IMG/VR virus record: IMGVR_UViG_3300022723_000142
Coordinates: 1 to 53,674 of that record
Source: a virus
Direction: 5' to 3' (one strand)
Length of the DNA stretch: 53,674 nt
Part shown: positions 4,123-36,157 of the stretch, piece by piece
Layout: every line of letters begins with the position of its first letter
Position numbering within the stretch: position 1 is the stretch's first letter
Notes under the pieces: model-generated
Databases searched by the model: none
What the model was told of the DNA's origin: nothing
What the model saw: the letters and a program-made list of their open reading frames with translations, nothing else
Translations under genes and position numbers: made by a program

Positions 4123-4570
4123 CTTCATCTTAGCTTCATATTAAAGCTTTTTCGCCATTTCTGAAAAACACCTAACTGTCACAAGGGGCTTTTATGAAGC
4201 TAAGATGAAGTAAGTATCAAAATATACAGTTTTAGGGGGAGGGTGGCACACTTCTGAGGGGGGGTGGCACACTTCGAAAATAGCAAGTGTGCCACCCCTA
4301 AAGCATTGCTGTGTAAGGATTTTGCTTAGGGTGTCACACATGGCACACTTCTTTCTGATTTAATTTACTAGACAAAATTCTCTATATTAGAGAAAAGGCA
4401 ACTGGCACAGTACTACACGCCATAGGAGATCTACTATGCACGCTCCGACTCAGATGAAGTGTGACACCTGTGCCACCCCTCTAAGAAATGCTTTAGTAGC
4501 AGTAGTTTGAGGGTGGCACACTTGCTATTTTCGAAGTGTGCCACCCCTAAAGTTTTGTGCCACCCGGTAT
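4123..4570. repeat. Non-coding structured module A: TGGCACA-box cluster, two 38-bp hairpin palindromes, AT-rich core; inverted homologue of 24612..25041
   Basis: Boxes GGGTGGCACACTTC at 4241, 4262 and 4511. Inverse boxes at 4285, 4534 and 4557. Composite box 4329-4351 with an imperfect inverse at 4456-4479. Hairpins at 4261-4298 and 4511-4547. 18-bp perfect inverted repeat 4123-4140/4193-4210. 65-bp run 4320-4384 identical to the reverse complement of module B. Confidence 0.9.
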
Positions 4571-7732: not shown

Positions 7733-7803
7733 ATTGATATTACGTAATTCAATCCCATTCTAGTTTATTCCGTAGGGTTTGTTTTCATACTGCCTACTCT
7801 TGA

Positions 7804-9488: not shown

Positions 9489-9502
9489 GGAGGTCTTTAA
9501 CC

Positions 9503-10483: not shown

Positions 10484-10487
10484 TTGA

Positions 10488-11622: not shown

Positions 11623-11623
11623 C

Positions 11624-11734: not shown

Positions 11735-11880
11735 AGAGACGGGGATTCCCCGGTCACCCGGAGAGGTTTCTGCTTCGTAGCACCTGCCTTTCGAGATTTA
11801 CTCTCTTCGGGTCTTACGGTCGCTCCACAGACTGAAACCGCTTGCCCAGCGGCCAAGACATTTATCGCAGCGTTGACATC
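11699..11880 (-). ncRNA. Predicted omega (right-end) guide RNA of the TnpB element
   Basis: Inferred from known TnpB biology: the omega RNA spans the 3' end of tnpB and the right end, then reads ~16 nt into the flank. The right-end hairpin (11723-11745) overlaps the tnpB stop. No direct evidence of transcription. Confidence 0.3.
11722..11749. repeat. Right-end subterminal hairpin motif of the TnpB element
   Basis: CTCCCCGCTCTAAAGAGACGGGGATTCC; stem TCCCCG/CGGGGA. Confidence 0.8.
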
Positions 11881-12927: not shown

Positions 12928-12985
12928 GTCTCACATTGTAGTAAATGCAATTTGAGAATGCGACTAAAGTCGCCGTTCGTTTTTC

Positions 12986-13013
12986 CTCCCCGGTCTAAAG
13001 ACGCGGGGTTTCC
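12986..13013. repeat. Left-end subterminal hairpin motif of the TnpB element
   Basis: CTCCCCGGTCTAAAGACGCGGGGTTTCC; stem CCCCG/CGGGG. Same orientation as the copy at 11722. Confidence 0.8.
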
Positions 13014-13034
13014 AAACGTTTTGAGGATCTTTCC

Positions 13035-13211
13035 ATGAATTTGCCGCGTATTATCAGAGCCGATTTGGGGGCTAATGTGATCCAATTTGGCGGCTTTACC
13101 TTGTATCGAGACAGGCTATGCACCTCTCAAGACGGGGTGCGGCTTTGCGGCCCTGACCACGGTTGGGTGTTAGCCTCGCCGTGGTGTGTATGTCGATGGG
13201 GTGGAGAGTAA
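13035..13211 (+). pseudogene. 3' fragment of the ORF interrupted by the TnpB element
   Basis: 58 codons (MNLPRIIRADLGANVIQFGGFTLYRDRL...CRWGGE) ending 4 nt before the next gene. Its frame is compatible with fusion to 11624.. after removal of the element. Confidence 0.45.
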
Positions 13212-13214
13212 TAG

Positions 13215-16208
13215 ATGGCAGCACCTAGCGTATCAGGCCTAACGTCGCTTCAAGAATTAGATTTCAGCGCCAACGGGACCGCAATGGTGGCGGCCTCTGG
13301 AGCGCTGACTTTTGATACAGATAGAAAAGATCGGATGCATTGTGATGTAACTCTAAACGATACAGAATGGTATGAGATATCCTTCACATCGTCTCAAGAT
13401 CTCACTGGGAAAAGTATTGTTTTCGCGTTTTATAACCGAATTCGGTATAAATCAGGAACATTTAGAGTTGGCCTGTTTTCAATCAGCAACACAGATTATC
13501 GACTTTGGCAATTTGAACCTGTGAGATTTCGGCAAATCGCTGTAATCCTGGATGCTGAGGATTTCGCATCTGAGGCAGCGGATACGGGCACATTCGATGT
13601 TACAAGTGTTGTTGGTATAAGGTTTCAATGGGTTTCCTTTAGAACAGACAATCACGTAAGTGCATCTGGAATTGAATGGGGGCAGGAAAATAACAACTCC
13701 CAAGATATCTTTAGTCTTCCTAATTCTGGCTTGACTTTATCCGAAGGTGAAAGTGGAAACCTATCAGAATTAAATGATATCGGAACGTATTTATCTGGCA
13801 ATGGTTTTTTAGAAGCCAACACAACAGGTTTTCACCAATTATTCGGGGAAAGCTTACTTGTTGGATTCCCGATCACGTTGGGTGGATCTGCGACACTAAA
13901 TCTAATCACTTCATTCAAAAATCTTGTTTTCCTAGAACGCTCAACAGCTAGTTCTAAACGGGCAATTTTCCCAAGTCCTTACAAATTGGATGTTGACACG
14001 ACCAACGCCACTACTATTGATAGAACGGTGTTATCGTCAGAAAGCAGTAATTTTTCATTTTTGTCAAATCGACAAACTAACAGTCTGTTTATTGATAGCC
14101 CAACGACAGTAGAATTAGCAGGCGGGACAACCATTGAAATTTCTAGCCCAACTGATACTGTGTCAGGCGGTGAAGCCTATTCTGGATTAAATATATTAGA
14201 CTCGACCGCTGGGATTGCTTTTGCTCCAAGCTCTACAGCTGCATTTGCTGGGGACAACAAAATTACCGGAACGCCTGATCATGCATTCAGTTTTGAATCT
14301 GGTAATGGTTGGACAGATGGCGATTCCGTCAATTTATCTTCTTTTGATCTATCCAGCGTTACGCCCGGAACTAATATGTTTCGGGTTGATATTGGGTCAT
14401 CGGCAGAATTTACTGTAACGGTTCCTATTGGGAGTGGATTAACAGCTAGTGATGTGACTGCTGTTAATGGTGAAACCGTGACAGTGCAAGAGCCGCAAGC
14501 CACAACAGCGATCAGTGGATTCCCCTCCGCAAACAACACTAATGGCGTTGCACCTAATCCCGTACTCGGTATTTATGATGCCTCTATCGGGGCAACGCCA
14601 GCGGGATATCTGGCGGGCCTTGAAACCAGTGACGCAGAGTACAGCAGGGGAACATACACAATTAATGCAGGCGATTATGCAGGTAGCTTAGCAAGTGGTA
14701 CTGAGATTCTAGTGGTGGGTGATGCAGTCGGTTGGCGACGAACGGCGGCGATCGCAATTGACACATCAGATCCTCCAGCAACGTTAGATTTATCGCCCGC
14801 ATTTGATGAGTTTTTAGACGAAGCTGGGGTTGCCTTTATTGGTGCATCGGCGGCATGTAGTGGCCTCAATTACAACCAATCTGATGCGCGGTTTGAACTG
14901 GATAGCGCTAGCGGTGGAGCATCTAGCCTTTATAATTTTGCAGGCGTCGCGACTCGTCAGGAAGAGTTGACTTCTAATCTGACAGGTTTGCAAAACTTTG
15001 AAACAAGCGTAATTCGGGCGATCCAGTACATCAGCAATGATTCGTATAGGCGAATCATCTTGCCCAATTCGCTATCAGTAGCAGCTGCGGAAGCGGCAGA
15101 AACAAGCCCGATCATCAGCGATTTTGCCTTGCTGCGAGACGACAACACAGACCCGTTTGATCATGGATTGAGCAGTACAGCATCAGGGTTGACGGATAGG
15201 CCGGAAGTGCTGATTAGATTTCAGGCACCAAACTCAAATGTGAATGTTGCCAGCATTGATACGGATGCGATAACCGCCGAAGCGATCGCCGCTGATGCGA
15301 TCGCAGAAATCAACGCCACAGTAGATGCAGCCCTGACAGACTACGGAGCTAACACGACCGCCCCCGACAACTCAACCATCGCGGCGATCGCCTCTAACGT
15401 GAGCGACATCATCGCTGACATTGCAGATATGCAAGGTACTGGCTTTGTCTCGGCTGACCATAGCCTAGAGGCTATTCGCGATCGCGGCGATGCAGCGTGG
15501 ATTACGGCAACCGGGTTCAACACGACAACACCCCCAACGGCAGCAGCGATCGCCTCCCAAGTCAGAACGGAACTCACCATTGAACTCGCCCGCATCGATG
15601 CCAACATTACAAGCCGTCAAGCAACTGTCACATTTCCCTCAAATTTTTCACTGTTGGCGATTGACGGCAGTGGACAAGTCACGGCGGAGAATATGCGCGG
15701 TACTGATGGAGCCAACACCATAGCCCCAGACAATGCCGCGATCTCTACTATCCTCATCGATACCGGAACCATGCTACCCGCTCAAATATCAGCACTAAAT
15801 AATCTGGCGATCGCTGATGTAGAAACGGCCCTCAGCAATTACGATGCTCCGGTCTATGCCACGCTGCAAACCTATGGCGATACAAATTGGGCGACGGCAA
15901 CCGGGTTCAGCACATTCGACGGAGACCTATCGGGCATCCCTGCTGCAGTGTGGGGATACAGCGGACGGGCTTTAGATGGTAGTCAGGCAACCGCGATCGC
16001 GCTCATTGACACCATCAATACCAACGTATCCAGTTGCCTCAGTGCTGCCGAAGCCGTGACAGATGGGAGGTTTGTGGAGAACTACACCGCGTCGACCGCG
16101 ATTCAGTATGACACCGATGGGACTGTGCGAACCGTGTTCGACTTGCTGGATGCTAACGGCGACCCGGCGATATCTGCACAAACCGCCGTTGAACGGAGGC
16201 CGCAATAA
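13215..16208 (+). CDS. Large fibre-like virion protein (putative tail fibre/host-recognition protein)
   Basis: 997 aa, S/T/A/N-rich. Internal duplicated segments '...GDAAWITATGFNTTTP...' and '...GDTNWATATGFSTFDG...'. SD GGAGAG. Confidence 0.45.
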   Translation: MAAPSVSGLTSLQELDFSANGTAMVAASGALTFDTDRKDRMHCDVTLNDTEWYEISFTSSQDLTGKSIVFAFYNRIRYKSGTFRVGLFSISNTDYRLWQFEPVRFRQIAVILDAEDFASEAADTGTFDVTSVVGIRFQWVSFRTDNHVSASGIEWGQENNNSQDIFSLPNSGLTLSEGESGNLSELNDIGTYLSGNGFLEANTTGFHQLFGESLLVGFPITLGGSATLNLITSFKNLVFLERSTASSKRAIFPSPYKLDVDTTNATTIDRTVLSSESSNFSFLSNRQTNSLFIDSPTTVELAGGTTIEISSPTDTVSGGEAYSGLNILDSTAGIAFAPSSTAAFAGDNKITGTPDHAFSFESGNGWTDGDSVNLSSFDLSSVTPGTNMFRVDIGSSAEFTVTVPIGSGLTASDVTAVNGETVTVQEPQATTAISGFPSANNTNGVAPNPVLGIYDASIGATPAGYLAGLETSDAEYSRGTYTINAGDYAGSLASGTEILVVGDAVGWRRTAAIAIDTSDPPATLDLSPAFDEFLDEAGVAFIGASAACSGLNYNQSDARFELDSASGGASSLYNFAGVATRQEELTSNLTGLQNFETSVIRAIQYISNDSYRRIILPNSLSVAAAEAAETSPIISDFALLRDDNTDPFDHGLSSTASGLTDRPEVLIRFQAPNSNVNVASIDTDAITAEAIAADAIAEINATVDAALTDYGANTTAPDNSTIAAIASNVSDIIADIADMQGTGFVSADHSLEAIRDRGDAAWITATGFNTTTPPTAAAIASQVRTELTIELARIDANITSRQATVTFPSNFSLLAIDGSGQVTAENMRGTDGANTIAPDNAAISTILIDTGTMLPAQISALNNLAIADVETALSNYDAPVYATLQTYGDTNWATATGFSTFDGDLSGIPAAVWGYSGRALDGSQATAIALIDTINTNVSSCLSAAEAVTDGRFVENYTASTAIQYDTDGTVRTVFDLLDANGDPAISAQTAVERRPQ

Positions 16209-16456
16209 TGCCCCTTTCTCCCCTCGGCATTGGTGGCAATTTATCTCCGCTAGGCCTGAATGCTGGACTCGTCCGGCTGTTGTTTTTTTGCCCTCCATTG
16301 TTTACCGCGATCTCTTATGAGCCAACGCTAACGACTGAGGCCTACGAGCCCGACCTATCCGCGATCGCCTATGAGATAGCATTAGTGGCGACTGAATACG
16401 ATATCGACCTGGCCAGCATTGCCTATGAACCGCTGTTAACGGAGGACAATTGCTGA
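16208..16456 (+). CDS. Hypothetical protein with short (A/S)I(A/S)YEP repeats
   Basis: 82 aa. 'ISYEPTLTTEAYEPDLSAIAYEIALVATEYDIDLASIAYEPLL'. The start overlaps the previous stop. Confidence 0.45.
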   Translation: MPLSPLGIGGNLSPLGLNAGLVRLLFFCPPLFTAISYEPTLTTEAYEPDLSAIAYEIALVATEYDIDLASIAYEPLLTEDNC

Positions 16457-16839
16457 TGAGTGGACTAAATGGAAGGACATTTAACGCAGGGGCCGCGATT
16501 CAGGCTAAGTTTCGATTTGAGCGCCAGGATGACAACGACGACCTGACCGGTGCCGCGATCGCGTTGCGCTTGTTCACCTCGTCGAGTGCAGCGTCTCCAG
16601 CGCTCACCCTATCGGTTGGCAGTGGCATTGAAGTTGAGACGGATTCCGCATCGGAGCAACTTTTCAAGGTAACTCTCACCTCAACTCAGGCAACCACGCT
16701 ATTAGATGGCGCAACCCGGCAGCTCATCAGCTATGTTTTTGCCATCACTCCCAGCGGCGGCAATCCTACCCGGTCCGACGATGCCAGCACATACAGCGGG
16801 GCGTTTACGATTCAGGCTGAGGCGTTGGGTGGTAGGTAG
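16450..16839 (+). CDS. Hypothetical virion-module protein
   Basis: 129-aa ORF overlapping the preceding gene's end. Confidence 0.5.
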   Translation: MLMSGLNGRTFNAGAAIQAKFRFERQDDNDDLTGAAIALRLFTSSSAASPALTLSVGSGIEVETDSASEQLFKVTLTSTQATTLLDGATRQLISYVFAITPSGGNPTRSDDASTYSGAFTIQAEALGGR

Positions 16840-16949
16840 TCGTGCAAAAAAACGCTGTCTATTTTGTGGTAAAAACTCACAATTTTGTTCCTTGATTTGC
16901 CCAAAAGTTTTGTTGAGCGGAAACCCCATACCGCGCATGAATAGCCGGG

Positions 16950-17195
16950 CTAAAGGATGGCTATGCTGATATCAATTGCCGAGATAGCGCCGCTCAACTT
17001 CTCAGCAAACCAGAACATCGCGTAATACCAATTTGAATCAAGGACGGCTAACACGTGTGAGTGAGCATCCCCCTTCTCTGCCATGTCGGGCACGTGGAAA
17101 TGATCTATCACCTTGTCCATCTCTCGCCAAACGGGTTCAACGACTAACCGCCTTATCTCTACCTGCAAACTCGGGTCTGCTTTCCGTCTGCCCAT
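16950..17195 (-). CDS. Hypothetical protein, second gene of an RHH-led bicistron
   Basis: 81 aa. The ATG lies 10 nt after the RHH stop, with a GAGG SD in between. Confidence 0.5.
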   Translation of the reverse strand: MGRRKADPSLQVEIRRLVVEPVWREMDKVIDHFHVPDMAEKGDAHSHVLAVLDSNWYYAMFWFAEKLSGAISAIDISIAIL

Positions 17196-17205
17196 AGTGA
17201 TCGCC

Positions 17206-17367
17206 TCACTTGCTCTCAGCTTTTTTGAGATATGCCTCTAAAGCTTCCTCGCACAGTTCAGACATAGTGCGATCAGCCCTGACAGCAGCGATTTTCAGCC
17301 GTTGTTTTAGTTCGTCGCTGATTTCTACTTGTAGTCGTGCCACTGGCTCTTCTGGTACTGAACGCAT
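17206..17367 (-). CDS. Ribbon-helix-helix (CopG/Arc-like) DNA-binding protein
   Basis: A 53-aa ORF below the track's size cutoff: MRSVPEEPVARLQVEISDELKQRLKIAAVRADRTMSELCEEALEAYLKKAESK. It shows a beta-strand/helix/helix pattern typical of RHH antitoxins and repressors. Confidence 0.55.
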   Translation of the reverse strand: MRSVPEEPVARLQVEISDELKQRLKIAAVRADRTMSELCEEALEAYLKKAESK

Positions 17368-17554
17368 AAATAGTAGTCCTACTTCACGGTTTTGTGATCC
17401 TTTCAGCCTTATGTTAGCACTACTTCTAAAAATGTGTTACTACTAGCAGTAGTTAAGAACGGCATAGGCACTCGCTTGGTACCGATTGGAACGAATAAAG
17501 CTGTACCAAACCCGTGCCGCCCTAGTACCCACAACGTTTAGAGGCGTTTCAACC

Positions 17555-18061
17555 ATGCAAAGTCTGCACTCATTTTGTAAGCAACACGATCTACCGAAAA
17601 CCAGCGTTAAGCGGTTTCTGAATGATGAGGGATTCGATACCAGCAGCGGGTTAGGCCGTGACGCGATCGCCGCTGCCCTGGTGGAATTTAAGCCTGCTGG
17701 TAGTGCATCAAAGCCTGATGTGTTGCCGCCCCCTGGCTATGCTGATCCTTTCGCTGGTATTGGTGCCGGGGGTGCGATGGTGCCGACTGGCTACGCAGCA
17801 ACCGATCGGAGTTTAGCCGTGGCGATGTCAGAGCAACGGGTAAAGCAAATCTGCCAAAGTTCATCAATTAACCAACAGCAGACCGTGCAAGCCGCTATCG
17901 AGAGCGGTAATCAGTTGGGTACGCAGTTGGGTGCATTCCTGGGAGAGCGCACCATACAGGCTGCTGAAATGCAGCGCCAACAGATGATTGAGGAGTATTT
18001 GCAGGCGCAAGGGGTGAATGTTGCCCCAAAGCCCGCTGCCGACGATGGCAGCGCCGCCTGA
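17555..18061 (+). CDS. Hypothetical protein
   Basis: The ORF track starts at TTG 17486. ATG 17555 (MQSLHSFCKQHDLPKTSVKRFLND...) is the first ATG. Possible N-terminal HTH. Confidence 0.45.
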   Translation: MQSLHSFCKQHDLPKTSVKRFLNDEGFDTSSGLGRDAIAAALVEFKPAGSASKPDVLPPPGYADPFAGIGAGGAMVPTGYAATDRSLAVAMSEQRVKQICQSSSINQQQTVQAAIESGNQLGTQLGAFLGERTIQAAEMQRQQMIEEYLQAQGVNVAPKPAADDGSAA

Positions 18062-18132
18062 TGTTGGCGATCTCTGTTGCCCTGCTGATCATTTTGATTT
18101 GAACGAATGAAAACCTTTCCGGAGAACGACCG

Positions 18133-18393
18133 GTGACTATTGAACGCGAAAAGCAACTGCTTGAAGAAATTCTCGACTCTTACGGCCTTGAGCCAATCGT
18201 AAACGGCTTGATGGTGCGCTATTCCCTTGATGAGGTTCAGACTGCTTTATCAGGTACGCCGTGTCCCTGGGAAGTCGAAAGCGATCGCGACCTGTGCGAT
18301 TCAATTATCTCCGCCTGCCAGCAGCCAAATACGCCCGATACAGGATACATGCACCCAACGGAGGGTTGGGTATCAAGCAACTGGCCTAGCTAA
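18133..18393 (+). CDS. Hypothetical protein
   Basis: 86-aa ORF with a GTG start. Confidence 0.4.
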   Translation: MTIEREKQLLEEILDSYGLEPIVNGLMVRYSLDEVQTALSGTPCPWEVESDRDLCDSIISACQQPNTPDTGYMHPTEGWVSSNWPS

Positions 18394-18445
18394 TCCCCCT
18401 CAATCAGTTTCCACGCCTCTTGAGGGGGGCATCCACCGTTACCCA

Positions 18446-19165
18446 ATGGACACAGCCATTATGAACCGACTACACCTGTTACTTACTGCCGGGGCCGCGA
18501 TCTCCCTGGCCAGCTCATCCGCGATCGCCAATGAACCTCCCGTCATTGATGACCGCATTCAAATGATTTACGACAATATCGAAGCATACCAACAGCTTGC
18601 CCTCGATGAATATGGCGTACCTGCATGGCAAGCCTTACCGCCTGCCAGCCGCCCTGATCTGGCTTTCCGCCCTGCCTGCCGCCAGCTCACCTATGGACAG
18701 ATTGAGGGTGAGCACGTTTGGCACTGGGATGGTGAACTGATCTACCGCTCGCCTAAAATATTGGACGCTGCCGACGCGGGCCTTTGTAAACGGGGGGCAA
18801 CTCACGCCGTCGAAGTACCCAAAGTATTGACCGCCGATGTGTGGTCACAATTCGAGAGCGCGATCGCGGATACGGGGCGGGCCGTTGCCGTCATCCCTGA
18901 GAGGGAAGTGGTGGAAGTGGTGGACGAAACCCCAAAGCCACCACAAGAACCCGTCGCCACCACTGCCCAGCCATCGACAGAAAGCCGTCAATTATTTCCT
19001 TTTATTTGGGTTGGGTTGGGCGCTGTTGCCTTTGCTGTTTTTGGCTGTTCACTGCGCAAAGGCGATAACCGGAAACGCATTTCTAAGCCGGCAACAGCCA
19101 CCACAAAAACGCCACAAGATCCGCCGCAAGAACACACCGAAATTACATACGACTTCGAGTTATAG
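18446..19165 (+). CDS. Secreted/membrane-anchored protein (signal peptide plus C-terminal TM helix)
   Basis: MDTAIMNRLHLLLTAGAAISLASSSAIA|NEPP has an AXA-type signal peptide. C-terminal hydrophobic 'LFPFIWVGLGAVAFAVFGCSL'. The track ORF from 18227 overlaps the previous gene and is probably over-extended. Confidence 0.5.
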   Translation: MDTAIMNRLHLLLTAGAAISLASSSAIANEPPVIDDRIQMIYDNIEAYQQLALDEYGVPAWQALPPASRPDLAFRPACRQLTYGQIEGEHVWHWDGELIYRSPKILDAADAGLCKRGATHAVEVPKVLTADVWSQFESAIADTGRAVAVIPEREVVEVVDETPKPPQEPVATTAQPSTESRQLFPFIWVGLGAVAFAVFGCSLRKGDNRKRISKPATATTKTPQDPPQEHTEITYDFEL

Positions 19166-19268
19166 CGCTGTGAGTGAGTGTGAGCACTCACAGTGAGTGC
19201 TCACAGATGCGCTGTGAGTGCCTTGTGAGTCGGCAGTTATCGCCCTGTAACCCCTATTTGGTGAACCC

Positions 19269-19781
19269 ATGAGATTAGACTTTGACGACTTAACCAACAC
19301 GCAACAAACCGCCCCTAAAGAACTGCTTTCTGAAAAAATTATGGGGCAAGTAAAAATTGCTTTTTTCGGAGTAGTGACGCTGACCTGTTTTGGGCTGGGA
19401 TTGAGCCAAGCTTTCAGCCCAGCCGCTCGACAAATCCGCTCCGAGATTCAGCAGCAGGAACAGCAACAAACTCGAGAATTAACGCTGCAGCAGCAACAGC
19501 AGCGCCATGGCCAGCAAGCCCGGCAGATTGCCGAAGAGCGCTATCGCGAGGGGTGCTTACTGGTTTACACCCTCGATGCCGATGGGAATGTGATTTCCCT
19601 GTACGAAGGCATGGCGGTAGTGGACTCGACGACGAATCAGCCCTTAGCCGATGGCACTACGGTTTGTGACCCCAACGGTGCAACCGCAGTCCTTGAGAAC
19701 GGGGGCAAGGTTGGCGTGATTGCCGTGACGCCTGAAAGCGCCATGGTTCAGCAGTTAATTGCAGAGGGTAAACTCCGATGA
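19269..19781 (+). CDS. Single-pass membrane protein with Q-rich coiled coil
   Basis: TM 'VKIAFFGVVTLTCFGLGLSQAF' followed by 'QQQEQQQTRELTLQQQQQRHGQQ'. Confidence 0.55.
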   Translation: MRLDFDDLTNTQQTAPKELLSEKIMGQVKIAFFGVVTLTCFGLGLSQAFSPAARQIRSEIQQQEQQQTRELTLQQQQQRHGQQARQIAEERYREGCLLVYTLDADGNVISLYEGMAVVDSTTNQPLADGTTVCDPNGATAVLENGGKVGVIAVTPESAMVQQLIAEGKLR

Positions 19782-20470
19782 CGAAAGCTAAGTATGGCGA
19801 CGAGCAAACCTTGTATAACCCTGGCAACGGGGGCAAGTATCAAGCTCTATTCTGGTTTTTGCGGTTGGCGCTGCTGTTGGTTTTGTGTGGGGTAATTATC
19901 CGAAATATCGAACCCTATGCCCAATGGTCGCAGGCGTGGCTTGGTTCCAATATGACGGGCTGGTGGACGCTGATACCCGGTGCCACTTGGGTAGTGGACA
20001 AGGTTTATCGGTTCTTTGGTATCGTGCTTTGGGCATTATTTCAAACCTTGGAAACGATCCCGCTGTTCCTGCTGGGCACTCGTTTCGGGTTGGGGGTGCT
20101 GATTGCCAGCTATGAGCAGCAGGATCAGCAGCAACGCAAGATTGACACCTATCCCACCGATGACGCGGTGTTGACGTTCCTTAAAAAGAAATACAACGCG
20201 ATGGGCTTACGGGCTCTCGATTTCTTCCGCATGGCAGCGCCGTTTGCCTATGCAGTGGACCTAATTGTGTGTTGGCAAATCTTTCCGCCGCTAAAAGACG
20301 GATACACCTGGTCTCAAGTCGTCATGGGTTGGAATTGGGGCGGTATCGCGTGGAGCAACGTGGTGAGCCTGGTCGTTACCCTGCTCGCCTTTGAGATGGT
20401 CGTCCTGTGTTGGATGCGTACCTCTGAAATGATTTTCACGATTCGCCGGGGGATTAAATCAAATGCGTAG
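19778..20470 (+). CDS. Polytopic membrane protein
   Basis: 230 aa with several hydrophobic segments (e.g. 'ALFWFLRLALLLVLCGVII', 'FFGIVLWALFQTLETIPLFLLG', 'VVSLVVTLLAFEMVVLCW'). ATGA overlap with the upstream gene. Confidence 0.6.
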   Translation: MTKAKYGDEQTLYNPGNGGKYQALFWFLRLALLLVLCGVIIRNIEPYAQWSQAWLGSNMTGWWTLIPGATWVVDKVYRFFGIVLWALFQTLETIPLFLLGTRFGLGVLIASYEQQDQQQRKIDTYPTDDAVLTFLKKKYNAMGLRALDFFRMAAPFAYAVDLIVCWQIFPPLKDGYTWSQVVMGWNWGGIAWSNVVSLVVTLLAFEMVVLCWMRTSEMIFTIRRGIKSNA

Positions 20471-21953
20471 AGAAACTAAGCCAGAACTAAAGAAAGCCGC
20501 TATCGAAGCGGTACGGACGCAATCACACCTTGCCCTATCGGATCAGTACCTTGATACCTCTAAAACCTTGCCCCTATGGTTGGGAGCCGGGTTGGGGTCG
20601 CTGGTATTCATCGGGAATTTGGGCGCGATCGGGGTGGGTTTGTTGTTTGTGGGGGAGCGCTTATTCTCCTATCGTACCTACAGCCGCAAACGTGCCCAGC
20701 TCGCCACCACGCGCAGTGCTAGCGCCATTATTGAGCCGCTAAGGCGCAATCCCGTGGAGTACTCCTATGCGAAAGCCATCATGCAAGCCCGTGGGGATTT
20801 GGCGCTGCTGATACCGGATGACGATGAAGATGACGAAACTGATTCCCCTACGGTGGACGTGGCCAGCTCCACTGTTAGCGAGTCGGGCCTCTTGCGTGAC
20901 GTGCCGATGACGTGGGTACCTAAAGCGCGGGGGCAAGGTGAACACCTGGCAGTCATCGGCCTGTCGGGAGCATCTAAAACCACCACGCTGCTAAAGGCTT
21001 GTGAGGGCATCAATACGCCGATCATCTACGTCACCATTAAGGATGCAGACACCTCGCCGCCTAACTGGGAAGCTTACAAACTGAGCAAAACAGCCGGGGC
21101 ATACTACCTTGCCCAGCTATGCCACATCTGCGATCGCCTCGAGGATATGCTCACGGGGGGCATAGAGCATCACTTGATTGTGGATGAGGCATTGCAGCAG
21201 ATTGATCAAGCCAAGGACTCCGAGAAACTAGCAGAGGGCAAGCCTTACAAGGGCACTGCCAGCCGGTTTGAATCGCTCATAAAGTGCTATATCCGCTCGG
21301 GGCGGAGTGATGGGCAGCTTATTGGTTTGGTGAGTCAATCTCCCAATGGGACGGATTTGTTTGGCAGCGCTAAGACCATGCAAGGGTTAAAGCTCATTCT
21401 GTGCGCTGGTGAATATAGCTCAAATAAATTCCAATTCTTTACCGCATGGGCTAAGCAATTATTTGGCGGTCTGGTGAATGCCGATATTGAATCAGAGCTT
21501 AGCCAGGTTAAGGCTGGTTTCTGGCATCTGACAAATACGGGTGATGGGTTGGCATTGAACGAAACCATTCAATCCGACGTGGTGATGGTGGCTTGTGCTG
21601 AATGCCCAGCCGCGCATATAGGGGACGAGGTACCCGATAAACCTGTCGGGCCTTCCCCCATGAGGCAGAAAGCCCAGCGCTTTATCAATGAGAATGAGCA
21701 ACCCAGCAAAGCCGCTTGGGAGCAGGGGCAAGAACGGGGCGCGATCGCCTATGCCTACTGCGCAGTGCTGCAAGATGCCCTTGCGGAAGACGTGCCCTTA
21801 GCCGGGTTTGGCGGCAACTCTAAATTTGCGTGGCGGTTGCATAAGGCTGGGGTGATTGAGAACCGTAGCCGTGAGCAGTGGTGGCCACACCTCGAAGCGC
21901 TAATCGATAAAGGCTATCTCAATGCCGACTCAGATAAATTGTGGATTGATTAG
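20463..21953 (+). CDS. Membrane-anchored P-loop NTPase (FtsK/HerA/T4CP-like architecture)
   Basis: N-terminal hydrophobic 'LPLWLGAGLGSLVFIGNLGAIGVGLLFVG', Walker A-like 'VIGLSGASKTTT' and Walker B 'HHLIVDEA'. Overlaps the upstream gene by 8 nt. Confidence 0.55.
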   Translation: MRRETKPELKKAAIEAVRTQSHLALSDQYLDTSKTLPLWLGAGLGSLVFIGNLGAIGVGLLFVGERLFSYRTYSRKRAQLATTRSASAIIEPLRRNPVEYSYAKAIMQARGDLALLIPDDDEDDETDSPTVDVASSTVSESGLLRDVPMTWVPKARGQGEHLAVIGLSGASKTTTLLKACEGINTPIIYVTIKDADTSPPNWEAYKLSKTAGAYYLAQLCHICDRLEDMLTGGIEHHLIVDEALQQIDQAKDSEKLAEGKPYKGTASRFESLIKCYIRSGRSDGQLIGLVSQSPNGTDLFGSAKTMQGLKLILCAGEYSSNKFQFFTAWAKQLFGGLVNADIESELSQVKAGFWHLTNTGDGLALNETIQSDVVMVACAECPAAHIGDEVPDKPVGPSPMRQKAQRFINENEQPSKAAWEQGQERGAIAYAYCAVLQDALAEDVPLAGFGGNSKFAWRLHKAGVIENRSREQWWPHLEALIDKGYLNADSDKLWID

Positions 21954-22022: not shown

Positions 22023-24524
22023 CTAAACCCAGCCATGACGACGATTAAGTAAGTCAGCATCATTTCGAGTGCGATGGTATTCGAGGCTGCACTTGCAATT
22101 CACAAAACATATCCGAGTTCCCGGCATTGACATTTGCCCCCTCAGTACAATCCCCTTGCCAGTTTCAGCGACACATTCTGAGCAGTGTTCGGCAACGCCC
22201 AACCTATTGCTGACATAGGGAAACTCAGCCACGGGATGGGCGGCATCCTGCGCCTGGTTATATAGCAGCTCGGCATCATGCACATAGAGTTTAGCCCGCG
22301 CCGAGATCGCCCCGACCGACATCACACCGCTCAATACTTCGGCACTGAACCGCCGCAGGTAGTCGTACTGCCTTAATAGTTCATCCTTTACGGTTTCTCG
22401 ATAGCGCGGCTCAATATTGCGTCGGTTGCCAAATCCGAACACGAAGAACAATGCTGCTGCCCCTGCAATGATTTCGGCTAGCCGTTCTTCCCATTGCGCC
22501 GCATCGATATCGCCCGACTCTAGCAGGGATGTTAGAGCGTCAATCTGCCCCTCATAACTATCGAGTTCAGCGGTGAGCAGTTCTAGAATCTCATCAGGCG
22601 TCACCCGGTCATCGCCATCGCGGTATTGGCCTGCATCTTCATCCCATTGCCACCCTTGTTCATCGGCCAGCGATCGCACCTCAGCCCAATCAATATCGCT
22701 CAACTCTTGAAAGTAGGCAACGCTGGGCAATCGAACGAAGTCCGGCTGAAAAAGGTCAGTATCAAACTTTTTTGCATGTTCCTCTCCCCCGTCCGCTCTT
22801 GTTGATTCAGCAGTTTTGTAATTCGCAAGCTCTTTTAATGTTAGCTCTCGCACTTCGCCCATAAACTCTTTGGGCATAGCTGAAAGATAAATGGCCTTAG
22901 CTTCATCAATTGATGAAGCACCAATAACCATCTTTTCTTCGTCGAATTTACCATTGATAACTTGGTCAATAGCAAATACTTTTTTGCTGGCCAGGTCAGT
23001 GCCCACATAAACATCAACAGCCATCCCGTCAGAGCCTTTTGTCTTTTGGAAATGCCCATAGCCAGCTTGCAAAACCTTGCCATGCCGCTTATCAAACGGA
23101 AAATACTGAAGTCCAACCCTAAAACCGTTCCAGTCAATGACCCTTTTTGTTGGGGTTGCTTCATCATTCCTATCGTTAGGCGCTGCTGTAGCCACTTCGA
23201 TTACATTCTCAATGTCTTGGCCAGTCGAGATCGCCATGCGCACCTCATCAGCGCTCACGGCCCCCGACTCAATCAGCAACTTAAATGTCTCGGCTTGCCC
23301 CTTCTTGTTTTCCTGCTTCTCCTGTGGCGTTTCGGTGTAGATACTGGGATATTCAATTTCCCAGTTACTGGGCACTGTGCCCAACGCCTCAAAGATGGCG
23401 TGGAATACGATGCGGTGGTTGCTCATAAAATCCTGAGCTTGCCAAGCCTGCACTTGTTCGGCATATGCCCGCGTTTCAGCGCCGCCGCTATCCGCCAACG
23501 CCGATTTACCCACAGTCCCCCAAATCTTATAGAAAGGTAACCCGGTGGCCGCCGTCAGCTCATCTACAATCGACTGAAAGTTCTCCTTGACGCCAGTGAA
23601 GGAGCGCTCTTGAAAGTCGCTGTTGCTGGTCTGGGCATCTTGCACCAACACCTTATGCAGACTCATCATCTGGGCGATCGAGTTCATCATATTGGTGAGT
23701 GCCGTTTCACCGCCTGGGCCAGCCAGAACATCTACCAGACCATCGATAGAAACCTTAATCAGCGAATAGGTTTGTAGCCCTTTTGAGATAGCATCCTTGG
23801 CCATATAGTGTCTATTGAAAATCTCAAATATTCCCTGAATGACGGAGTCGTGGCCTGCATCGCCTTCTAACTGTTGATCATAGGGGTGAATCTCAGCACC
23901 ATCAAACACCAGCACTCGGCTATGGTGGATGCGCTGGTTAAACCTGAAATCCTGGTTAGCATTGTCTCTGCCCTCCGTGCGGGCGATGCGGTAAAACTCC
24001 GGGTCGCTAGGATTGATAGTTGTGAAATCTGGTCGCAGCTGGTAACGATCCAGCACTGAAAAACCCTCAAAACTTCGCACCTTTCGCAGCGGCTTTTCTG
24101 GATTCTCAGAACCATTCACCCTCAGCACAATATATGCGCGTCCAAACAGGTCGGCATATTGCTTCGCCTTACGGAATGCGTCATGGCCTGACATTTGCCG
24201 ACTATAAGGGGATGCATTCTGAGAGCCCTGGTTATAGATGGCGATCGCTGCTGCTGCGTCCTGTTCGTCTCCCCCCTCATGGATGACCAACTCAACCCCT
24301 TTACGTGTCATGTCGTTAGCGGGGGCATCGATGATGCGGCGAATTAGCCACGAGCCACGGTATAGCGATCGCAACTCCACTTCAGACAGCAGCCGCACCT
24401 GCCCAACCTGAGTTGAGGTGAACGGGTCTCGGCCATGAACCCCCATACCCGTTGCCGTATTTCCTAGCAGCGAGTTACTGAGGGCGTTGGCTAGATTATC
24501 AAACCGCAGGTCAGTGTCAATCAT
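22023..24524 (-). CDS. Portal protein candidate with long C-terminal extension (possible head-morphogenesis fusion)
   Basis: First large gene downstream of terL on the same strand. The track ORF reaches 24623, but the first 33 codons run into the repeat module, so ATG 24524 (MIDTDLRFDNLANAL...) is the more plausible start. The C-terminus ends in a Cys cluster 'CSECVAETGKG...CFVNCKCSLEYH'. Confidence 0.55.
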   Translation of the reverse strand: MIDTDLRFDNLANALSNSLLGNTATGMGVHGRDPFTSTQVGQVRLLSEVELRSLYRGSWLIRRIIDAPANDMTRKGVELVIHEGGDEQDAAAAIAIYNQGSQNASPYSRQMSGHDAFRKAKQYADLFGRAYIVLRVNGSENPEKPLRKVRSFEGFSVLDRYQLRPDFTTINPSDPEFYRIARTEGRDNANQDFRFNQRIHHSRVLVFDGAEIHPYDQQLEGDAGHDSVIQGIFEIFNRHYMAKDAISKGLQTYSLIKVSIDGLVDVLAGPGGETALTNMMNSIAQMMSLHKVLVQDAQTSNSDFQERSFTGVKENFQSIVDELTAATGLPFYKIWGTVGKSALADSGGAETRAYAEQVQAWQAQDFMSNHRIVFHAIFEALGTVPSNWEIEYPSIYTETPQEKQENKKGQAETFKLLIESGAVSADEVRMAISTGQDIENVIEVATAAPNDRNDEATPTKRVIDWNGFRVGLQYFPFDKRHGKVLQAGYGHFQKTKGSDGMAVDVYVGTDLASKKVFAIDQVINGKFDEEKMVIGASSIDEAKAIYLSAMPKEFMGEVRELTLKELANYKTAESTRADGGEEHAKKFDTDLFQPDFVRLPSVAYFQELSDIDWAEVRSLADEQGWQWDEDAGQYRDGDDRVTPDEILELLTAELDSYEGQIDALTSLLESGDIDAAQWEERLAEIIAGAAALFFVFGFGNRRNIEPRYRETVKDELLRQYDYLRRFSAEVLSGVMSVGAISARAKLYVHDAELLYNQAQDAAHPVAEFPYVSNRLGVAEHCSECVAETGKGIVLRGQMSMPGTRICFVNCKCSLEYHRTRNDADLLNRRHGWV

Positions 24525-24611
24525 GGAAAGTAACAGGAAGGTTCCCTCTAGTTTACTAAATACAGAAACACTACCTATACAACAGGCAAACTTGATTAGA
24601 GACCCTGTTTT

Positions 24612-25041
24612 ATACGGTGGCACAAAACTTTAGGGGTGGCACACTTCAAAAATGGCAAGTGTGCCACCCCTAAGCCCTTGATATACAAGGATTCTTTAGG
24701 GGGGTGTCACACATGGCACACTTCATCTGGGTCGGAGCGTGCAGAGTAAATTTTCTATGACGTGTAATGCTGTGCCAGTTGCCATTCTCTCTTTTAGAGA
24801 ATTTTGTCTAGTAAATTAAATCAGAAAGAAGTGTGCCATGTGTGACACCCTAAGCAAAACTCTTGATATGTATAGCTTTGAGGGTGGCACACTTCGAAAA
24901 TAGCAAGTGTGCCACCCCCCTGAAGTGTGACACTAAAATGGTATATTTAGATACTTTTCTCAGCTTAGCTTCATAAAAGGGCGTTGTGACAATTTGGAGC
25001 TTAGGAGAAATGTATTATGGCACAATACATGTGCCAGTTGC
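24612..25041. repeat. Non-coding structured module B: inverted homologue of module A, located between terL and the portal gene
   Basis: Hairpins at 24633-24670 and 24882-24918. Perfect 23-bp inverted repeat 24702-24724/24828-24850 around a 103-bp AT-rich core. About 10 TGGCACA/TGTGCCA boxes. The reverse complement aligns with 4150-4565 at roughly 80-90% identity by eye. Confidence 0.9.
25009..25030 (+). promoter_or_regulatory. TGTATTATG..ATACA palindromic motif (copy 2)
   Basis: AATGTATT-ATGGCAC-AATACAT. Related to the copies at 53543 and 51683 and contains a TGnCACAAT extended -10-like string. Confidence 0.35.
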
Positions 25042-25053
25042 GTATGGCAGTAA

Positions 25054-25086
25054 CAAAAAGCACTTAGACATTTTCGGCTAAGTGCT
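25054..25086 (-). terminator. Rho-independent terminator downstream of terL
   Basis: AGCACTTAG (25059-25067) pairs with CTAAGTGCT (25078-25086). The A run at 25055-25059 gives a U tract on the - strand. Sits 44 nt after the terL stop. Confidence 0.7.
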
Positions 25087-25129
25087 TGGCTCTCATTTAG
25101 TTTGTTTGTTTGGTTTGTTCGGGCGATGT

Positions 25130-27775
25130 TTAACTGTACAGGGCATTTAGAGTGTCGACGGCTGTCCCTTCAATTAGGTCATTGATCGCAAATACCAGTG
25201 CATCAAGGCGGTTTGGGCTAGGCATTCCCGGCTGCCATGTACACATCTCACGCTCCAAATCTACAAACGTCCCAACGTGATGAACTTTCCCCGCCTCATA
25301 TTGTTGGTGCGCTGGTTCGGCCCGAATAAGTTTGCCGCGACTGGATGTAGATTCTTTCACTGCAACAGTAGGGTCAATCAGCAGGACAGTCGCTTTCACC
25401 ATGTCGCCGCCAAAGTTGCGTTCAGCTACCAGATAATTAGCTTTCAAATCATGGTATCGGTCGATCACTGCCTGGAATCTTTCATTTGGGGTTCCCTTCA
25501 AACTGTCATCGTTGAGCACATACAGATGGCCGCTCGCTGCCTTACCCACCGCAACGTTACCGGCCTCTGTCGTAGAACTGCCCGAAGGATCAACGCCGAT
25601 CACAATCCTGATCAGCTCAGGGGTGCTGGTGACACGATACGGAGTGATGTCTCTGTCTTTGTCCCATAGCCCTCCGTCCGGTTCGTCTTCATGCTGTGAT
25701 TCGGTAAGGAATGTCCTCAGCCCCCACTTATTAATCTGTCGTTCAATGACTTCGAGGTTTTGTCCTTCTGGCCATGTGGGTTTGCCGCCACTGACGCGGT
25801 AAAGGTTTTGTTTTTTCTGATCGCTCCAATACTGCTCATATTCCAGGTCTATAGCAGCGGGCTCTTCAGTAACGGTTGCCCCTAGCAATATTTCCGCCCG
25901 ACCATCAGCAACTTGAGCGATCGCGCTGTCTTTGTGAATTTTGTTTTGCACAAAAAGCACGGTGGCATCGGTGGACTCAGCAGCGAGGATGTCACGGGAT
26001 ATTGTCTTGAGCTTCTTGGCAGTGGCTTCTGGCGTGTCGTGGGTGCCGTCGATATCATCCAATATTATGAGGTCGGGACGCTGTTCCTGAATACGAGCTC
26101 CACGAATCCGGCTATTCAGTCCCACACCAACGACGCCGAACCCATTCACCGTTTGCAACCGTTGGGCTGTCCAGTTGAGGGAAGCTGAGTATTTGTTGAG
26201 GGCACGGGGGACACCCATCTGTTCCAGCAATGCCGCGATCGCCTGCACATGCAAGTCGGCTTGATCTTGAGTGCCACAGACATACAGCGCCAATCGACGT
26301 TTCAACGAGCAAGCAAAGTACGCACAGAGCTGTTCTGCGATGGTGCTGTTGTGAGTTACCAAAAGATTTGTAATTAAGTTTTGATTACGCTCAACTTGAA
26401 CATCATAAGTTTCTCTGTCTCCCACGTCCTCAATTTTGACAACTTTGTCCCAAAAAACATCGGCTTTTTCTAGCCAAACCCATTGCGGCAAAGGCTCGTA
26501 AGTGATTGCTTTTTGAAGCTTTCCCCTGGTAATGTCGTAATCCTTCCCCAGTCGAGGCCCACCAGCGTTCCGGATTTTTCGATTAGTTCCTTTTGGCAGA
26601 CCTAACCCCACTTGACGCGGATAAGTGTCAAAAAGACTGTATCTGTGCTTTTCGCAAACCTTTTGCAGTTTTTCTTTTTTTAGAATTAGCGGCATCATAT
26701 CTCTGCATCGACTTAAGCAGTTCTGATCGATCATTAGTCTCCAAGCGCCTGCATAGTCATTAGGAGCTTCGATTGTTGAACTAATGACGCCAACTTGAGC
26801 CAGCAAAATTTCAAGGTCTTTCACTAACGCCTGATTAGCTAGAGCAATCCCCATCTTGCGCTCTTCTACCCAGCCATCGGTATCAAACATAGCTGCTAAA
26901 AAAATCCACTTTTGACGCTCTGGCAACTGAAAGACAAACTTAGGCACTCTCTTTTGAGTAGCTAATTTGTCTTTAATCCCTACGTTTTTAATCCACTGAC
27001 GCCCAAAACCTTTTAAGTTGTAGCCATATATCCCACAACGCTTAACTTCCATGCCCATTGCGTTAGCACAATAAATAAAATCCCTGACTATACACTCATC
27101 TGCATTTGTAAAACTACAATTATTAGACGTTGTAGAACCCTCGGCAATCATATAAGCCAGTAACTTAACCTCTTCATCTGGCCTGTCGATTACAGCAGAA
27201 ACGCTTTTTAAGTGGCGAGGTGAGGCGATCCTATCTTGCAGCGTCAATTCCCCTGCCAGCTTCCATCCGTCAAAAGTCCGCACTTTGTGGTCAGAAGTTA
27301 AGACAACTGATTTCCCTGTTGCCGTAGTCACCTGAATGCATGGCTTGATGCCGCTAAAAACTTTAGCGATGATGGAGTCGCCTTCGATCTGCCCAGACGC
27401 CTCATTCCAAGAAAGTATTTTTTCCCCTGGCTTGATTTCAGAAATAGGAGCTAACGACCCATCGAGTAAAGACAACATGGTATTTGCATCCAAGCATTTT
27501 GCACCGCCCCTACCCCATATCTCAACACGTGGCGTTGCGGGCTGTCCTGATTCGATAGCCTGGCCCCATTCCCAAACAGCCCTATGGCGATCTCCGTTAG
27601 GGATGAGGGTACCAGGTAGAGTGCGGGATAGGAATGCTTGTGGGGTTTCGGTGGGAGATGGGATGAGGTGAGGTGGGAGTGTGGGTCTTTCGTTTGTCGG
27701 CTTTACCCCTAACTCCTCAGCTAAACCATCCCACCAACTGTCTAAGCGCTCTGTTGTTGCTCTTTTTCTTGCCAC
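25130..27775 (-). CDS. terL: Terminase large subunit interrupted by an intein
   Basis: 881 aa. P-loop-like 'WGRGGAK|C...HN|ST' is split by the intein. After removing 383 aa, the 498-aa extein is typical in size. Downstream 'LIILDDIDG' resembles Walker B. Located after terS and before the portal gene. Confidence 0.75.
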   Translation of the reverse strand: MARKRATTERLDSWWDGLAEELGVKPTNERPTLPPHLIPSPTETPQAFLSRTLPGTLIPNGDRHRAVWEWGQAIESGQPATPRVEIWGRGGAKCLDANTMLSLLDGSLAPISEIKPGEKILSWNEASGQIEGDSIIAKVFSGIKPCIQVTTATGKSVVLTSDHKVRTFDGWKLAGELTLQDRIASPRHLKSVSAVIDRPDEEVKLLAYMIAEGSTTSNNCSFTNADECIVRDFIYCANAMGMEVKRCGIYGYNLKGFGRQWIKNVGIKDKLATQKRVPKFVFQLPERQKWIFLAAMFDTDGWVEERKMGIALANQALVKDLEILLAQVGVISSTIEAPNDYAGAWRLMIDQNCLSRCRDMMPLILKKEKLQKVCEKHRYSLFDTYPRQVGLGLPKGTNRKIRNAGGPRLGKDYDITRGKLQKAITYEPLPQWVWLEKADVFWDKVVKIEDVGDRETYDVQVERNQNLITNLLVTHNSTIAEQLCAYFACSLKRRLALYVCGTQDQADLHVQAIAALLEQMGVPRALNKYSASLNWTAQRLQTVNGFGVVGVGLNSRIRGARIQEQRPDLIILDDIDGTHDTPEATAKKLKTISRDILAAESTDATVLFVQNKIHKDSAIAQVADGRAEILLGATVTEEPAAIDLEYEQYWSDQKKQNLYRVSGGKPTWPEGQNLEVIERQINKWGLRTFLTESQHEDEPDGGLWDKDRDITPYRVTSTPELIRIVIGVDPSGSSTTEAGNVAVGKAASGHLYVLNDDSLKGTPNERFQAVIDRYHDLKANYLVAERNFGGDMVKATVLLIDPTVAVKESTSSRGKLIRAEPAHQQYEAGKVHHVGTFVDLEREMCTWQPGMPSPNRLDALVFAINDLIEGTAVDTLNALYS
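26348..27496 (-). mobile_element. Intein (383 aa) with LAGLIDADG homing-endonuclease domain
   Basis: Starts at Cys94 'CLDANTMLSL' and has block B 'VLTSDHKV'. LAGLIDADG motifs 'LLAYMIAEGS' and 'FLAAMFDTDGWV'. Ends 'LLVTHN', followed by the +1 Ser. Confidence 0.85.
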
Positions 27776-35630: not shown

Positions 35631-36157
35631 ACCTCGATAATCTGAAATGTGCAGACATGGGCCACGTCATCACCCAACAGCCCTAACTCGGCGTTGAAAT
35701 CTTCGGACAATTGCAGTTTGACGTTAAACACCCCAAAACCATACTTGACGGATGAATCATAGGTTTCGTCTAGTTCGGCTAACAAAGTACGCCCATTCTG
35801 CGATCGCTCAATGTTGCTCAGATATTGAATCTCATCAATCAATCGAAGCTTGCCATCATTCTGGTCTTTGTATTGGTCATCTTGCCAGTCGGCCAGGTTT
35901 ACTAGCAGCCGCATTTCGGCCAGTGTCAGCACTGTGAAGACTGACCACTGAAACCGGGTCAGGTGGATGGGGCCGACAATCTGAGAAGTGCCTGCAATTG
36001 ACCGGCCAGCTAACGCCGCATAGTTAAGCCGTTGGCGAGAAGGGGCGCGGCCATCAGATGTCCATCGGTTGATTGTGATTGATGGGTAGGGGGTGGTTGC
36101 GAAATTGGAAGCGCTGCCGCCCGGAATGCCTAGATTGAGTTCACCGATCGACATCAC
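35627..36157 (-). CDS. Distal tail protein candidate (by position)
   Basis: 176-aa ORF immediately after the tape measure gene, with overlapping stop/start. Confidence 0.35.
   Translation of the reverse strand: MMSIGELNLGIPGGSASNFATTPYPSITINRWTSDGRAPSRQRLNYAALAGRSIAGTSQIVGPIHLTRFQWSVFTVLTLAEMRLLVNLADWQDDQYKDQNDGKLRLIDEIQYLSNIERSQNGRTLLAELDETYDSSVKYGFGVFNVKLQLSEDFNAELGLLGDDVAHVCTFQIIEV

Follow-up and report, generated by a model that had tools for sequence, protein, structure and literature searches.

Two inverted copies of a non-coding module, each a cluster of about ten TGGCACA boxes around a core that is AT-rich over one half, lie 20 kb apart in the phage genome IMGVR_UViG_3300022723_000142. 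With little better than even confidence, we read the module as a replication origin of the iteron type that serves a P4-family primase-helicase and of which a duplicate now stands in the packaging operon. Module A follows the primase-helicase gene, and module B separates the large terminase gene (terL) from the portal gene. The whole IMG/VR record (53,674 bp), called the window below, was analyzed; it is a complete phage genome in a circular assembly, in which positions 1-127 are identical to 53548-53674, a terminal repeat of 127 bp that is assembly overlap.

It is module A, conserved and accompanied in synteny by replication genes, that gives the element its most likely meaning. By comparing sequences we infer a replication start at the modules, a protein that binds the boxes and a contribution of copy B. 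Under the mechanism we propose, some ten copies of a box of 13-20 bp (CTTTAGGGGTGGCACACTTC) flank a very AT-rich stretch in opposite orientations. The initiator that binds them would most likely be the primase-helicase, whose gene lies just upstream of module A; it would melt the AT-rich stretch, load itself and prime synthesis. Module B, lying behind a terminator, would be shielded from terL transcription and kept functional, either as a second origin that fires or as a remote site for initiator binding, looping to A in the manner of the P4 crr. Alternatively, B with the initiator bound to it may block forks and so start the switch to concatemers, a role that has been proposed for SPP1 oriR.

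Anatomy of the modules

Coordinates are collected in Table 1. A nhmmer profile was prepared from six modules, leaving out the one in the related contig L160 (see below). It finds exactly two copies in the window (E 1e-105 and 2e-100), the match to B running from 25012 to 24611 (E 2e-100). The box TGGCACA occurs 20 times in the window, where 9.9 +/- 3.3 are expected genome-wide, and all but one of these lie in the modules: nine in A and ten in 24618-25036, the latter in line with the 'about 10' that the original prediction gave for B. The longer box GTGKCACACTT, allowing up to one mismatch, is found 18 times (1.3 expected), 17 of them within modules, and AACTGKCACA five times (0.2 expected), with two in each module. 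The roughly ten boxes of a module follow the order -> -> <-, -> ->, (AT-rich core), <- <-, -> <- <-.

Both hairpins of module B and its perfect 23-bp inverted repeat around 103 bp, which had been predicted, were recovered by repeat search. The AT-rich core of that prediction stands for one half only: 24780-24827 is 27% GC in a genome of 50% GC, among the lowest 0.28% of 45-mers, while the other half is about 47-52% GC. The AT-rich half is a candidate DNA-unwinding element. Its equivalent in module A, 4352-4398, is 23% GC and falls among the lowest 0.01% of 45-mers.

A near-identical 23-nt palindrome, AAATGTATTATG(GC/CT)ACAATACAT, of the form ATGTATT-N7-AATACAT, occurs twice in the window, at 25008-25030 on the terL-proximal edge of B and at 53544-53566 (equal to 1-19 over the circular junction), between the genes for the superfamily 1 (SF1) helicase and for an SSB-like protein (SSB, single-stranded DNA-binding protein). 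Repeats of ACAAATGTAC flank the modules in the related contigs L157 and L158.

Table 1. Features of the window discussed in the text, with the strand and the basis of each call
Feature	Coordinates	Strand	Basis or remark
Module A	4150..4568	+	Alignment, profile match, synteny in relatives
Module A core	4352..4454	+	AT-rich half 4352-4398; invariant motif AACTGGCACA at 4400-4409
Primase-helicase, P4-family, DUF3854 + DUF5906, 898 aa	1302..3998	+	Candidate initiator
Module B, inverted second copy of the iteron/AT-rich module	24612..25041	-	Alignment to module A, profile match, 10 TGGCACA boxes
Module B hairpin box pair, counterpart of module A hairpin H2	24633..24670		Repeat search
Module B tandem box pair GGGTGTCACACATGGCACACTTC, opposite arm of the 23-bp inverted repeat	24702..24724		Repeat search
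Module B core	24725..24827	-	AT-rich half 24780-24827; invariant motif AACTGGCACA at 24780..24771
Tandem box pair of module B, GAAGTGTGCCATGTGTGACACCC, forming an arm of the perfect 23-bp inverted repeat	24828..24850		Repeat search
Module B hairpin box pair, counterpart of module A hairpin H1	24882..24918		Repeat search; arms GGGTGGCACACTT / AAGTGTGCCACCC; loop flipped relative to A
Extra close-spaced box pair and palindrome (AACTGGCACA-TGTAT-TGTGCCA / ATGTATT-N7-AATACAT)	25008..25039		terL-proximal edge of B
Intrinsic-terminator-like hairpin after terL	25087..25050	-	Folding and sequence
Portal gene, extra C-terminal domains	22023..24524 (maximal open reading frame 22023-24623)	-	phrog_146 match
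terL, large terminase gene	25130-27775	-	phrog_38 match

Module A and its relatives

Module A begins about 150 bp past the primase-helicase stop and is flanked by the primase terminator (4024-4051, +) and by the terminator of a leftward three-gene operon (4631-4606, -). The replication cluster comprises Pol A, a 5'-3' exonuclease, the SF1 helicase, a 388-aa SSB-like protein and the primase-helicase. The last of these matches PHROG 'DNA primase' families; its match to TIGR01613 'primase, P4 family' (E 6e-13) is below the curated cut-off.

The primase-helicase family was resolved into 11 clusters of 45-100% identity, all metagenomic, and all but the window are on contigs of at most 10 kb. A homologous module of about 420 bp follows the gene in five of the five relative contigs that have at least 400 bp of downstream flank. 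It is complete in L153 (sample ERZ23498743), L155 and L158, whose primase-helicases are 83, 65 and 63% identical to that of the window, and in L160 (65%), where it is found at E 3e-41 although this contig was not in the profile. It is complete also in L154 (67%), the only one of the five in which it does not directly follow the gene, a 318-aa reverse-strand gene having been inserted in between. L157 and L159 are two more contigs with the module, but they terminate within its left arm. Synteny is constant only for the upstream replication genes (SF1 helicase, SSB-like protein, primase-helicase); past the module, the contigs differ in their genes.

The modules share one architecture (alignment A2). 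The primase terminator is followed by a left arm with AACTGKCACAAGG and GTATACC, a hairpin of inverted boxes, a spacer and a tandem box pair; then come the AT-rich stretch (...ACAAAAAATTCTCT...), the invariant AACTGKCACA, an inverted tandem pair, a spacer and a second hairpin. What changes between genomes is the box itself, which reads AAGTGTGCCA in both window copies, AAGTGGGCCA in L153, TTAGGGCCA in L155 and AAGTGGGGGA in L158; where the window has GGTGGCACACTTC, L153 has GGTGGCCCACTTC. All boxes of a genome change in concert while box positions stay fixed, which is the behavior of iterons and of binding sites that co-evolve with one protein.

Six of the seven relatives' contigs (L153, L154, L157, L158, L159 and L160) end in the module or at most about 200 bp past it, and these six extend 1.8-6.7 kb on the opposite side. 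Such ends could be assembly breaks at palindromic sequence or at sequence repeated in a second copy, or physical DNA ends. In L154 the SF1 helicase (36-2948) is 970 aa long and carries a LAGLIDADG domain, another intein besides that of the window's terL, and the inserted 318-aa gene (7026-7982) has an internal duplication.

Beyond these contigs, the hairpin pattern has no match in the viral contigs of IMG/VR, and a primase-helicase profile finds no relative there; in GenBank phages and PLSDB, neither the module at the DNA level nor the primase-helicase at the protein level has a match. In metagenome contigs (241 million records) the hairpin pattern finds five unrelated loci, only one of which, L146, has a box cluster. 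Genome contigs were scanned with the 14-mer GGGTGGCACACTTC, a pattern too short to be informative: its matches, at least 120 single ones in unrelated taxa, are at chance level for 596 Gb.

Module B and the terL-portal gap

From the terL stop (25130) it is 506 bp to GTG 24623, the start of the maximal portal open reading frame (ORF), and 605 bp to ATG 24524. This interval, predicted to be a non-coding gap of about 600 bp, contains no credible ORF. GTG 24623 falls inside the last box of module B. The portal gene call in the source has 833 aa, matching ATG 24524, and the portal N-termini of three homologues (L156, L149 and L151) align with that position; judged by the gene call and this alignment, the true portal start is ATG 24524 with an 833-aa product, as had been proposed.

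The original prediction placed a minus-strand terminator right after terL, and this is plausible. A hairpin begins 43 nt past the terL stop, with arm AAGCACTTAG, a 10-nt loop and arm CTAAGTGCTT (10-bp stem), followed by TTTGTT (UUUGUU in RNA); its folding energy is -14.2 kcal/mol (z = -2.2 against shuffles). It thus has the features expected of a rho-independent terminator, namely a stem-loop with GC, a U tract and a position at a gene end. A consensus terminator scan missed it because the loop limit of the scan was 8.

terL-portal junctions are usually tight, as predicted. In L156, the closest relative for both terL (68% identity) and portal (72%), the junction is 32 bp. In L149 (a 54-kb contig) and L151, where portal identity is 51-52% and the gene order is terS-terL-portal-protease-cement-MCP (small terminase, large terminase, portal, protease, cement and major capsid protein), the junctions are 34 and 26 bp. 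No profile match to the module was found in any of these three loci. Module B is therefore an insertion in the lineage of the window. A is the ancestral copy, with B the duplicate placed between terL and portal.

Comparison of the two copies

The reverse complement of B aligns with 4150-4568. That B is a second, inverted copy of a module at 4150-4565 was part of the original prediction and was reproduced exactly, including the identical runs of 65 bp (4320-4384) and 32 bp (4533-4564). Gap-free segments are 79-83% identical and the whole modules about 78-83%, and divergence is uneven: identity is 83-100% in the box arms and tandem pairs and 86-89% in the core, and only 47% and 55% in the spacers. 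Since boxes and core are kept and spacers have diverged, both copies look constrained, as would be expected if one protein uses both. Over alignment A2 the identity is 78% for A-B, 68% for A-L153 and 65% for B-L153, and A and B share the box variant. By this comparison A and B diverged long ago in the parts that vary between genomes and have retained the parts conserved in the family.

The loop of the H1-type hairpin reads CGAAAATAGCA on the plus strand in both A and B despite the opposite orientation of the modules. One hairpin loop has thus been flipped with its arms kept, which shows that strand-switching occurs at these palindromes. Besides inverted boxes there are direct repeats (4243 and 4264), and the tandem pairs of module A hold the TGTCACAC and TGGCACAC variants in swapped order, so that the boxes fit the consensus while the arms are non-complementary (G/T). 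Direct-repeat boxes and non-complementary tandem pairs favor protein sites over a pure stem structure.

That observation bears on the least probable of the explanations considered, a structured non-coding RNA made of the two 14-bp hairpins and a long central stem. Strong stems whose sequences covary between genomes speak for it, but the A tandem pairs do not pair at the swapped G/T variants, A and B differ by the flip of one hairpin loop, some boxes stand as direct repeats, the symmetric part of the module matches the profile equally on both strands, no promoter was found, and no Rfam family matches at gathering score (the best, at E 0.4-0.7, are chance miRNA-like hits).

The candidate initiator

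The primase-helicase is the best candidate for the box-binding protein because it is the constant neighbor of the module, because its family includes initiators with this role (P4 alpha and the Rep of Staphylococcus aureus pathogenicity islands, SaPI), and because it has a variable C-terminal segment. Its least conserved part is at about residues 744-832, where mean pairwise identity is 0.46-0.56 against about 0.7 elsewhere. Identities over these residues group the window with L153 and L158 with L159, as the box and left-arm sequences do; among only eight sequences, this co-variation of box and initiator is no more than suggestive.

Another upstream product, the 388-aa protein (56-1222, +), was considered as the iteron binder and rejected, being SSB-like with an acidic tail. 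It has no family match and is syntenic in all relatives; a weak OB (oligonucleotide/oligosaccharide-binding)-fold-like match and a long acidic C-terminal tail ending DDDWI suggest that it is probably the phage SSB.

Several observations weigh against an origin served by this initiator. An AlphaFold2 (AF2) model of primase-helicase residues 720-898 (the C-terminal 179) has a predicted local distance difference test score (pLDDT) of 85, and Foldseek finds no significant fold match for it in PDB (best E 0.09, no winged-helix); phmmer against PDB likewise finds no match. A winged helix, the domain by which SaPI Rep and P4 alpha bind their origins, is thus not demonstrated here, and the C-terminus may hold a different DNA-binding fold. 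Extremes of cumulative GC skew fall near 22 kb and 41 kb, where transcription converges or diverges, rather than at the modules; the skew tracks transcription direction and was rejected as an origin marker here. To judge by the 65-bp run identical in A and B and by the conserved motifs other than iterons, the core may hold more sequence-specific information than mere unwinding would call for. An unrelated genome, L001 (described below), has different iteron/AT-rich units, and such architecture alone is thus no proof of an origin. Finally, all the relatives are incomplete genomes.

An extension of the origin reading, which we hold improbable, is that the two inverted copies act jointly in the switch from circle-to-circle to concatemer replication, located at the packaging genes. 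A fork from one copy might stall at the initiator-bound other copy, in the manner of SPP1 oriR. Alternatively, recombination between the inverted copies might reverse one fork and lead to double-rolling-circle amplification, as in the yeast 2-micron plasmid. By the recombination route two genome isomers would exist, with the 4.4-24.8 kb segment inverted.

Alternative explanations

The best-surviving alternative to an origin has, in our estimate, a small chance of being correct: the module may be a transcription-control region, its boxes operators for a phage regulator (for example the XRE-type protein of 5673-5948 or the DUF2811 protein of 4671-4862), with a promoter in B that drives portal and one in A that drives rightward or antisense transcripts. 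Both copies are oriented alike relative to local transcription, and small DNA-binding proteins are encoded beside module A. With B placed behind a terminator and 87 nt ahead of the portal start, there would have to be a promoter somewhere if portal expression restarts, as originally predicted, and transcription does not read through the terminator. TATA-like elements are present in the spacers of B and of the relatives, and a -10-like TATAAA at the portal-proximal edge of B (24614..24609), spotted by eye, is the sole promoter candidate for portal. However, the promoter scan found no sigma-70-type promoter on the strand concerned (minus for portal), and alignment A2 contains no conserved promoter-like hexamers. 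In A, the ancestral copy, the TATA elements of the spacers have been lost; this copy is enclosed by convergent terminators, and the gene directly downstream of it is not co-oriented. In the relatives the downstream genes vary in both identity and strand, and the replication genes alone are syntenic. The alternatives considered here do not all exclude one another, and an origin might have a promoter as well.

A selfish palindromic mobile element, of the kind of a miniature inverted-repeat transposable element (MITE) or palindrome-associated transposable element (PATE), inserted at two intergenic sites and functionless for the phage, would account for two non-coding copies with internal inverted repeats, and for B being an insertion relative to the closest relatives; the genome also has a TnpB (OrfB_IS605) fragment elsewhere. 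We regard this as quite unlikely. Across proteins only 63-83% identical the module keeps its place behind the primase-helicase gene while its boxes change in concert, and the functional parts are selectively conserved between A and B. Further copies were not found in IMG/VR, the 241 million metagenome records, GenBank phages and PLSDB, and the fuzzy borders of B show no clear target-site duplication.

The original prediction also considered a pac/cos-type role conceivable, and such a packaging site, bound by the small terminase, now seems very unlikely. B adjoins terL with a putative terS just upstream, repeated protein-binding boxes are typical of cosB and pac regions, and most relatives' contigs end 0-200 bp past the module, which could mark physical genome ends. 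Yet there are two copies in opposite orientation 20 kb apart; the module is absent from the terminase/portal relatives L156, L149 and L151 and accompanies the primase-helicase in its own relatives, the ancestral copy being tied to replication genes; and both L155 and the window continue through the module into other genes.

Other features of the window and of unrelated loci

A putative terS lies directly upstream of terL. The terL gene contains an intein (26348-27469, -; residues 103-476; PF14890, with the LAGLIDADG homing-endonuclease domain PF14528) whose boundaries are CLDANT... and ...VTHN followed by S. Carrying it explains the terL length of 881 aa; the relatives' terL proteins, which have no intein, are 438-502 aa.

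The gene order of the window (5988-21953 on the plus strand, 22023-43774 on the minus strand) is unlike that of L149 and L151. There the packaging-head genes are on one strand and the tail genes diverge; in the window the protease/MCP block converges on the portal gene, and the tape-measure/tail block (36154-39828 and neighbors) is co-oriented with terS-terL-portal. At least two inversions relative to the L149/L151 order are implied by this comparison, neither of them with a breakpoint at a module. An inversion between A and B was rejected as the cause, as inverting 4.6-24.6 kb fails to restore terS-terL-portal-protease-MCP.

The leftward operon adjoining module A is closed by the gene of the DUF2811 protein (63 aa, E 5e-25; 4671-4862, -). 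Divergent consensus-like promoters (5575-5660) lie between this operon and the XRE-type helix-turn-helix (HTH) gene (5673-5948), and the region has the look of a small regulatory switch. The head-gene block begins with a gene (6704-7288, +) for a pentapeptide-repeat protein (HetL/Qnr-like, E 2.5e-27), which accounts for a 15-bp repeat family with tandem periodicity at 6726-7100. A small rightward operon at 44459-46853 (+) encodes an FHA-domain protein and, besides a protein of 159 aa, a PAS-EAL protein. The latter is a putative cyclic di-GMP (c-di-GMP) phosphodiesterase (PF00563, E 1e-36) and is 27% identical to the EAL protein of the IMG/VR contig L131. A truncated TnpB/OrfB_IS605 gene at 46992-47585 (-), perhaps continuing to 47970 (197 aa; PF01385, E 1.6e-15), is an IS200/IS605-type remnant without sequence relation to the modules. 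The cyanobacterial GCGATCGC palindrome is abundant in the genome.

Locus L146 (Ga0316619_10072377, 2075 bp) has at least seven boxes with core AAGTGTGCCAC at 719-1080, beside a TATA-rich stretch (400-620). The cluster looks like an iteron array, although the locus has no protein in common with the window; it is either convergence or a shared DNA-binding specificity.

The genome L001 (IMGVR_UViG_2914543266_000001, 74.5 kb) is cyanophage-like, with a terL 69% identical to that of the window and a Mu-type portal. Its terL-portal gap of about 640 bp holds two copies of a 135-bp palindromic unit (7553-8038), in which three GGGTGCAGG-type 9-mers stand on each side of a centre rich in T/A runs. Two further units of the same genome lie in other intergenic regions (L130 4988-5125; L131 10311-10444). 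Membership of the L001 unit in the family of the window's module was rejected, given no profile match, GGGTGCAGG-type boxes and the Mu-type portal.

Implications

No replication origin has been described for the window's phage lineage. If the origin reading is right, comparative genomics alone will have located an origin and its recognition code in an uncultured cyanophage lineage. The box variants would then be a natural specificity series, one variant differing from that of the window by a single base, and the series could map how DNA is read by a P4-family primase-helicase with an unrecognised C-terminal domain. Copy B in the packaging operon would make the parallel to SPP1 oriR open to test in a phage of a very different kind. 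For annotation, ATG 24524 should be taken as the portal start, and the 600-bp gap is neither a missing gene nor, very probably, a packaging site.

Comparison with known systems

Both the type of element and the dual arrangement have precedents, by analogy. P4 has two separate cis regions, ori and crr, which have a short repeat in common, present in either orientation, and to which the initiator alpha binds, its origin-binding domain being a winged helix; ori, crr and the alpha primase-helicase were reportedly described by Flensburg and Calendar in 1987 and by Ziegelin and colleagues in 1993. The candidate initiator here belongs to the same protein family, and the window likewise has two separate cis regions with a common repeat. 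However, crr is a shorter repeat region rather than a complete copy of ori, 4.5 kb separates the two regions in P4 as against 20 kb here, and a winged helix was not found in the model of the primase-helicase C-terminus.

The archaeal plasmid pRN1 has an essential cis sequence just 3' of its primase-helicase gene orf904 (PMC4234260). The pRN1 origin is a single copy and a stem-loop rather than an iteron array, and the analogy is one of position only.

SaPI origins are closer. They lie immediately 3' of rep and have 6-12 iterons in opposite orientation around an AT-rich centre; the iteron sequence is specific to the cognate initiator, and at least two iterons are found per side (PMC9371898). Module A and its relatives share the position after a primase/helicase gene and the iterons split around an AT-rich centre. 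They differ in having boxes of 13-20 bp, against 5-6 bp in SaPI, many of them as hairpin-forming pairs; in the extra invariant AACTGKCACA, twice per module; in the second copy; and in belonging to a cyanophage with its own Pol A. Nor is the winged-helix C-terminal domain of SaPI Rep recognised in the model for the primase-helicase here.

For the dual arrangement the parallel is SPP1, which has two similarly organised origins (repeats and an AT-rich unwinding element), oriL being in the initiator gene. oriR interrupts the late morphogenesis gene order and is 'bracketed between transcriptional signals', and this second origin is the proposed initiator-bound fork barrier that triggers concatemer synthesis (PMC6316719). 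Unlike the modules, SPP1 repeats are direct and not mostly inverted pairs, oriL is inside the initiator gene whereas A follows its gene, and there is no sequence similarity to the modules. SPP1 uses the initiator gp38 with a DnaB-type helicase, here replaced by a P4-family primase-helicase, so the relation would be one of analogy and not of membership. The likeness is in the layout: A stands at the candidate initiator gene, and B stands in the late cluster, behind a terminator and within the terL-portal pair.

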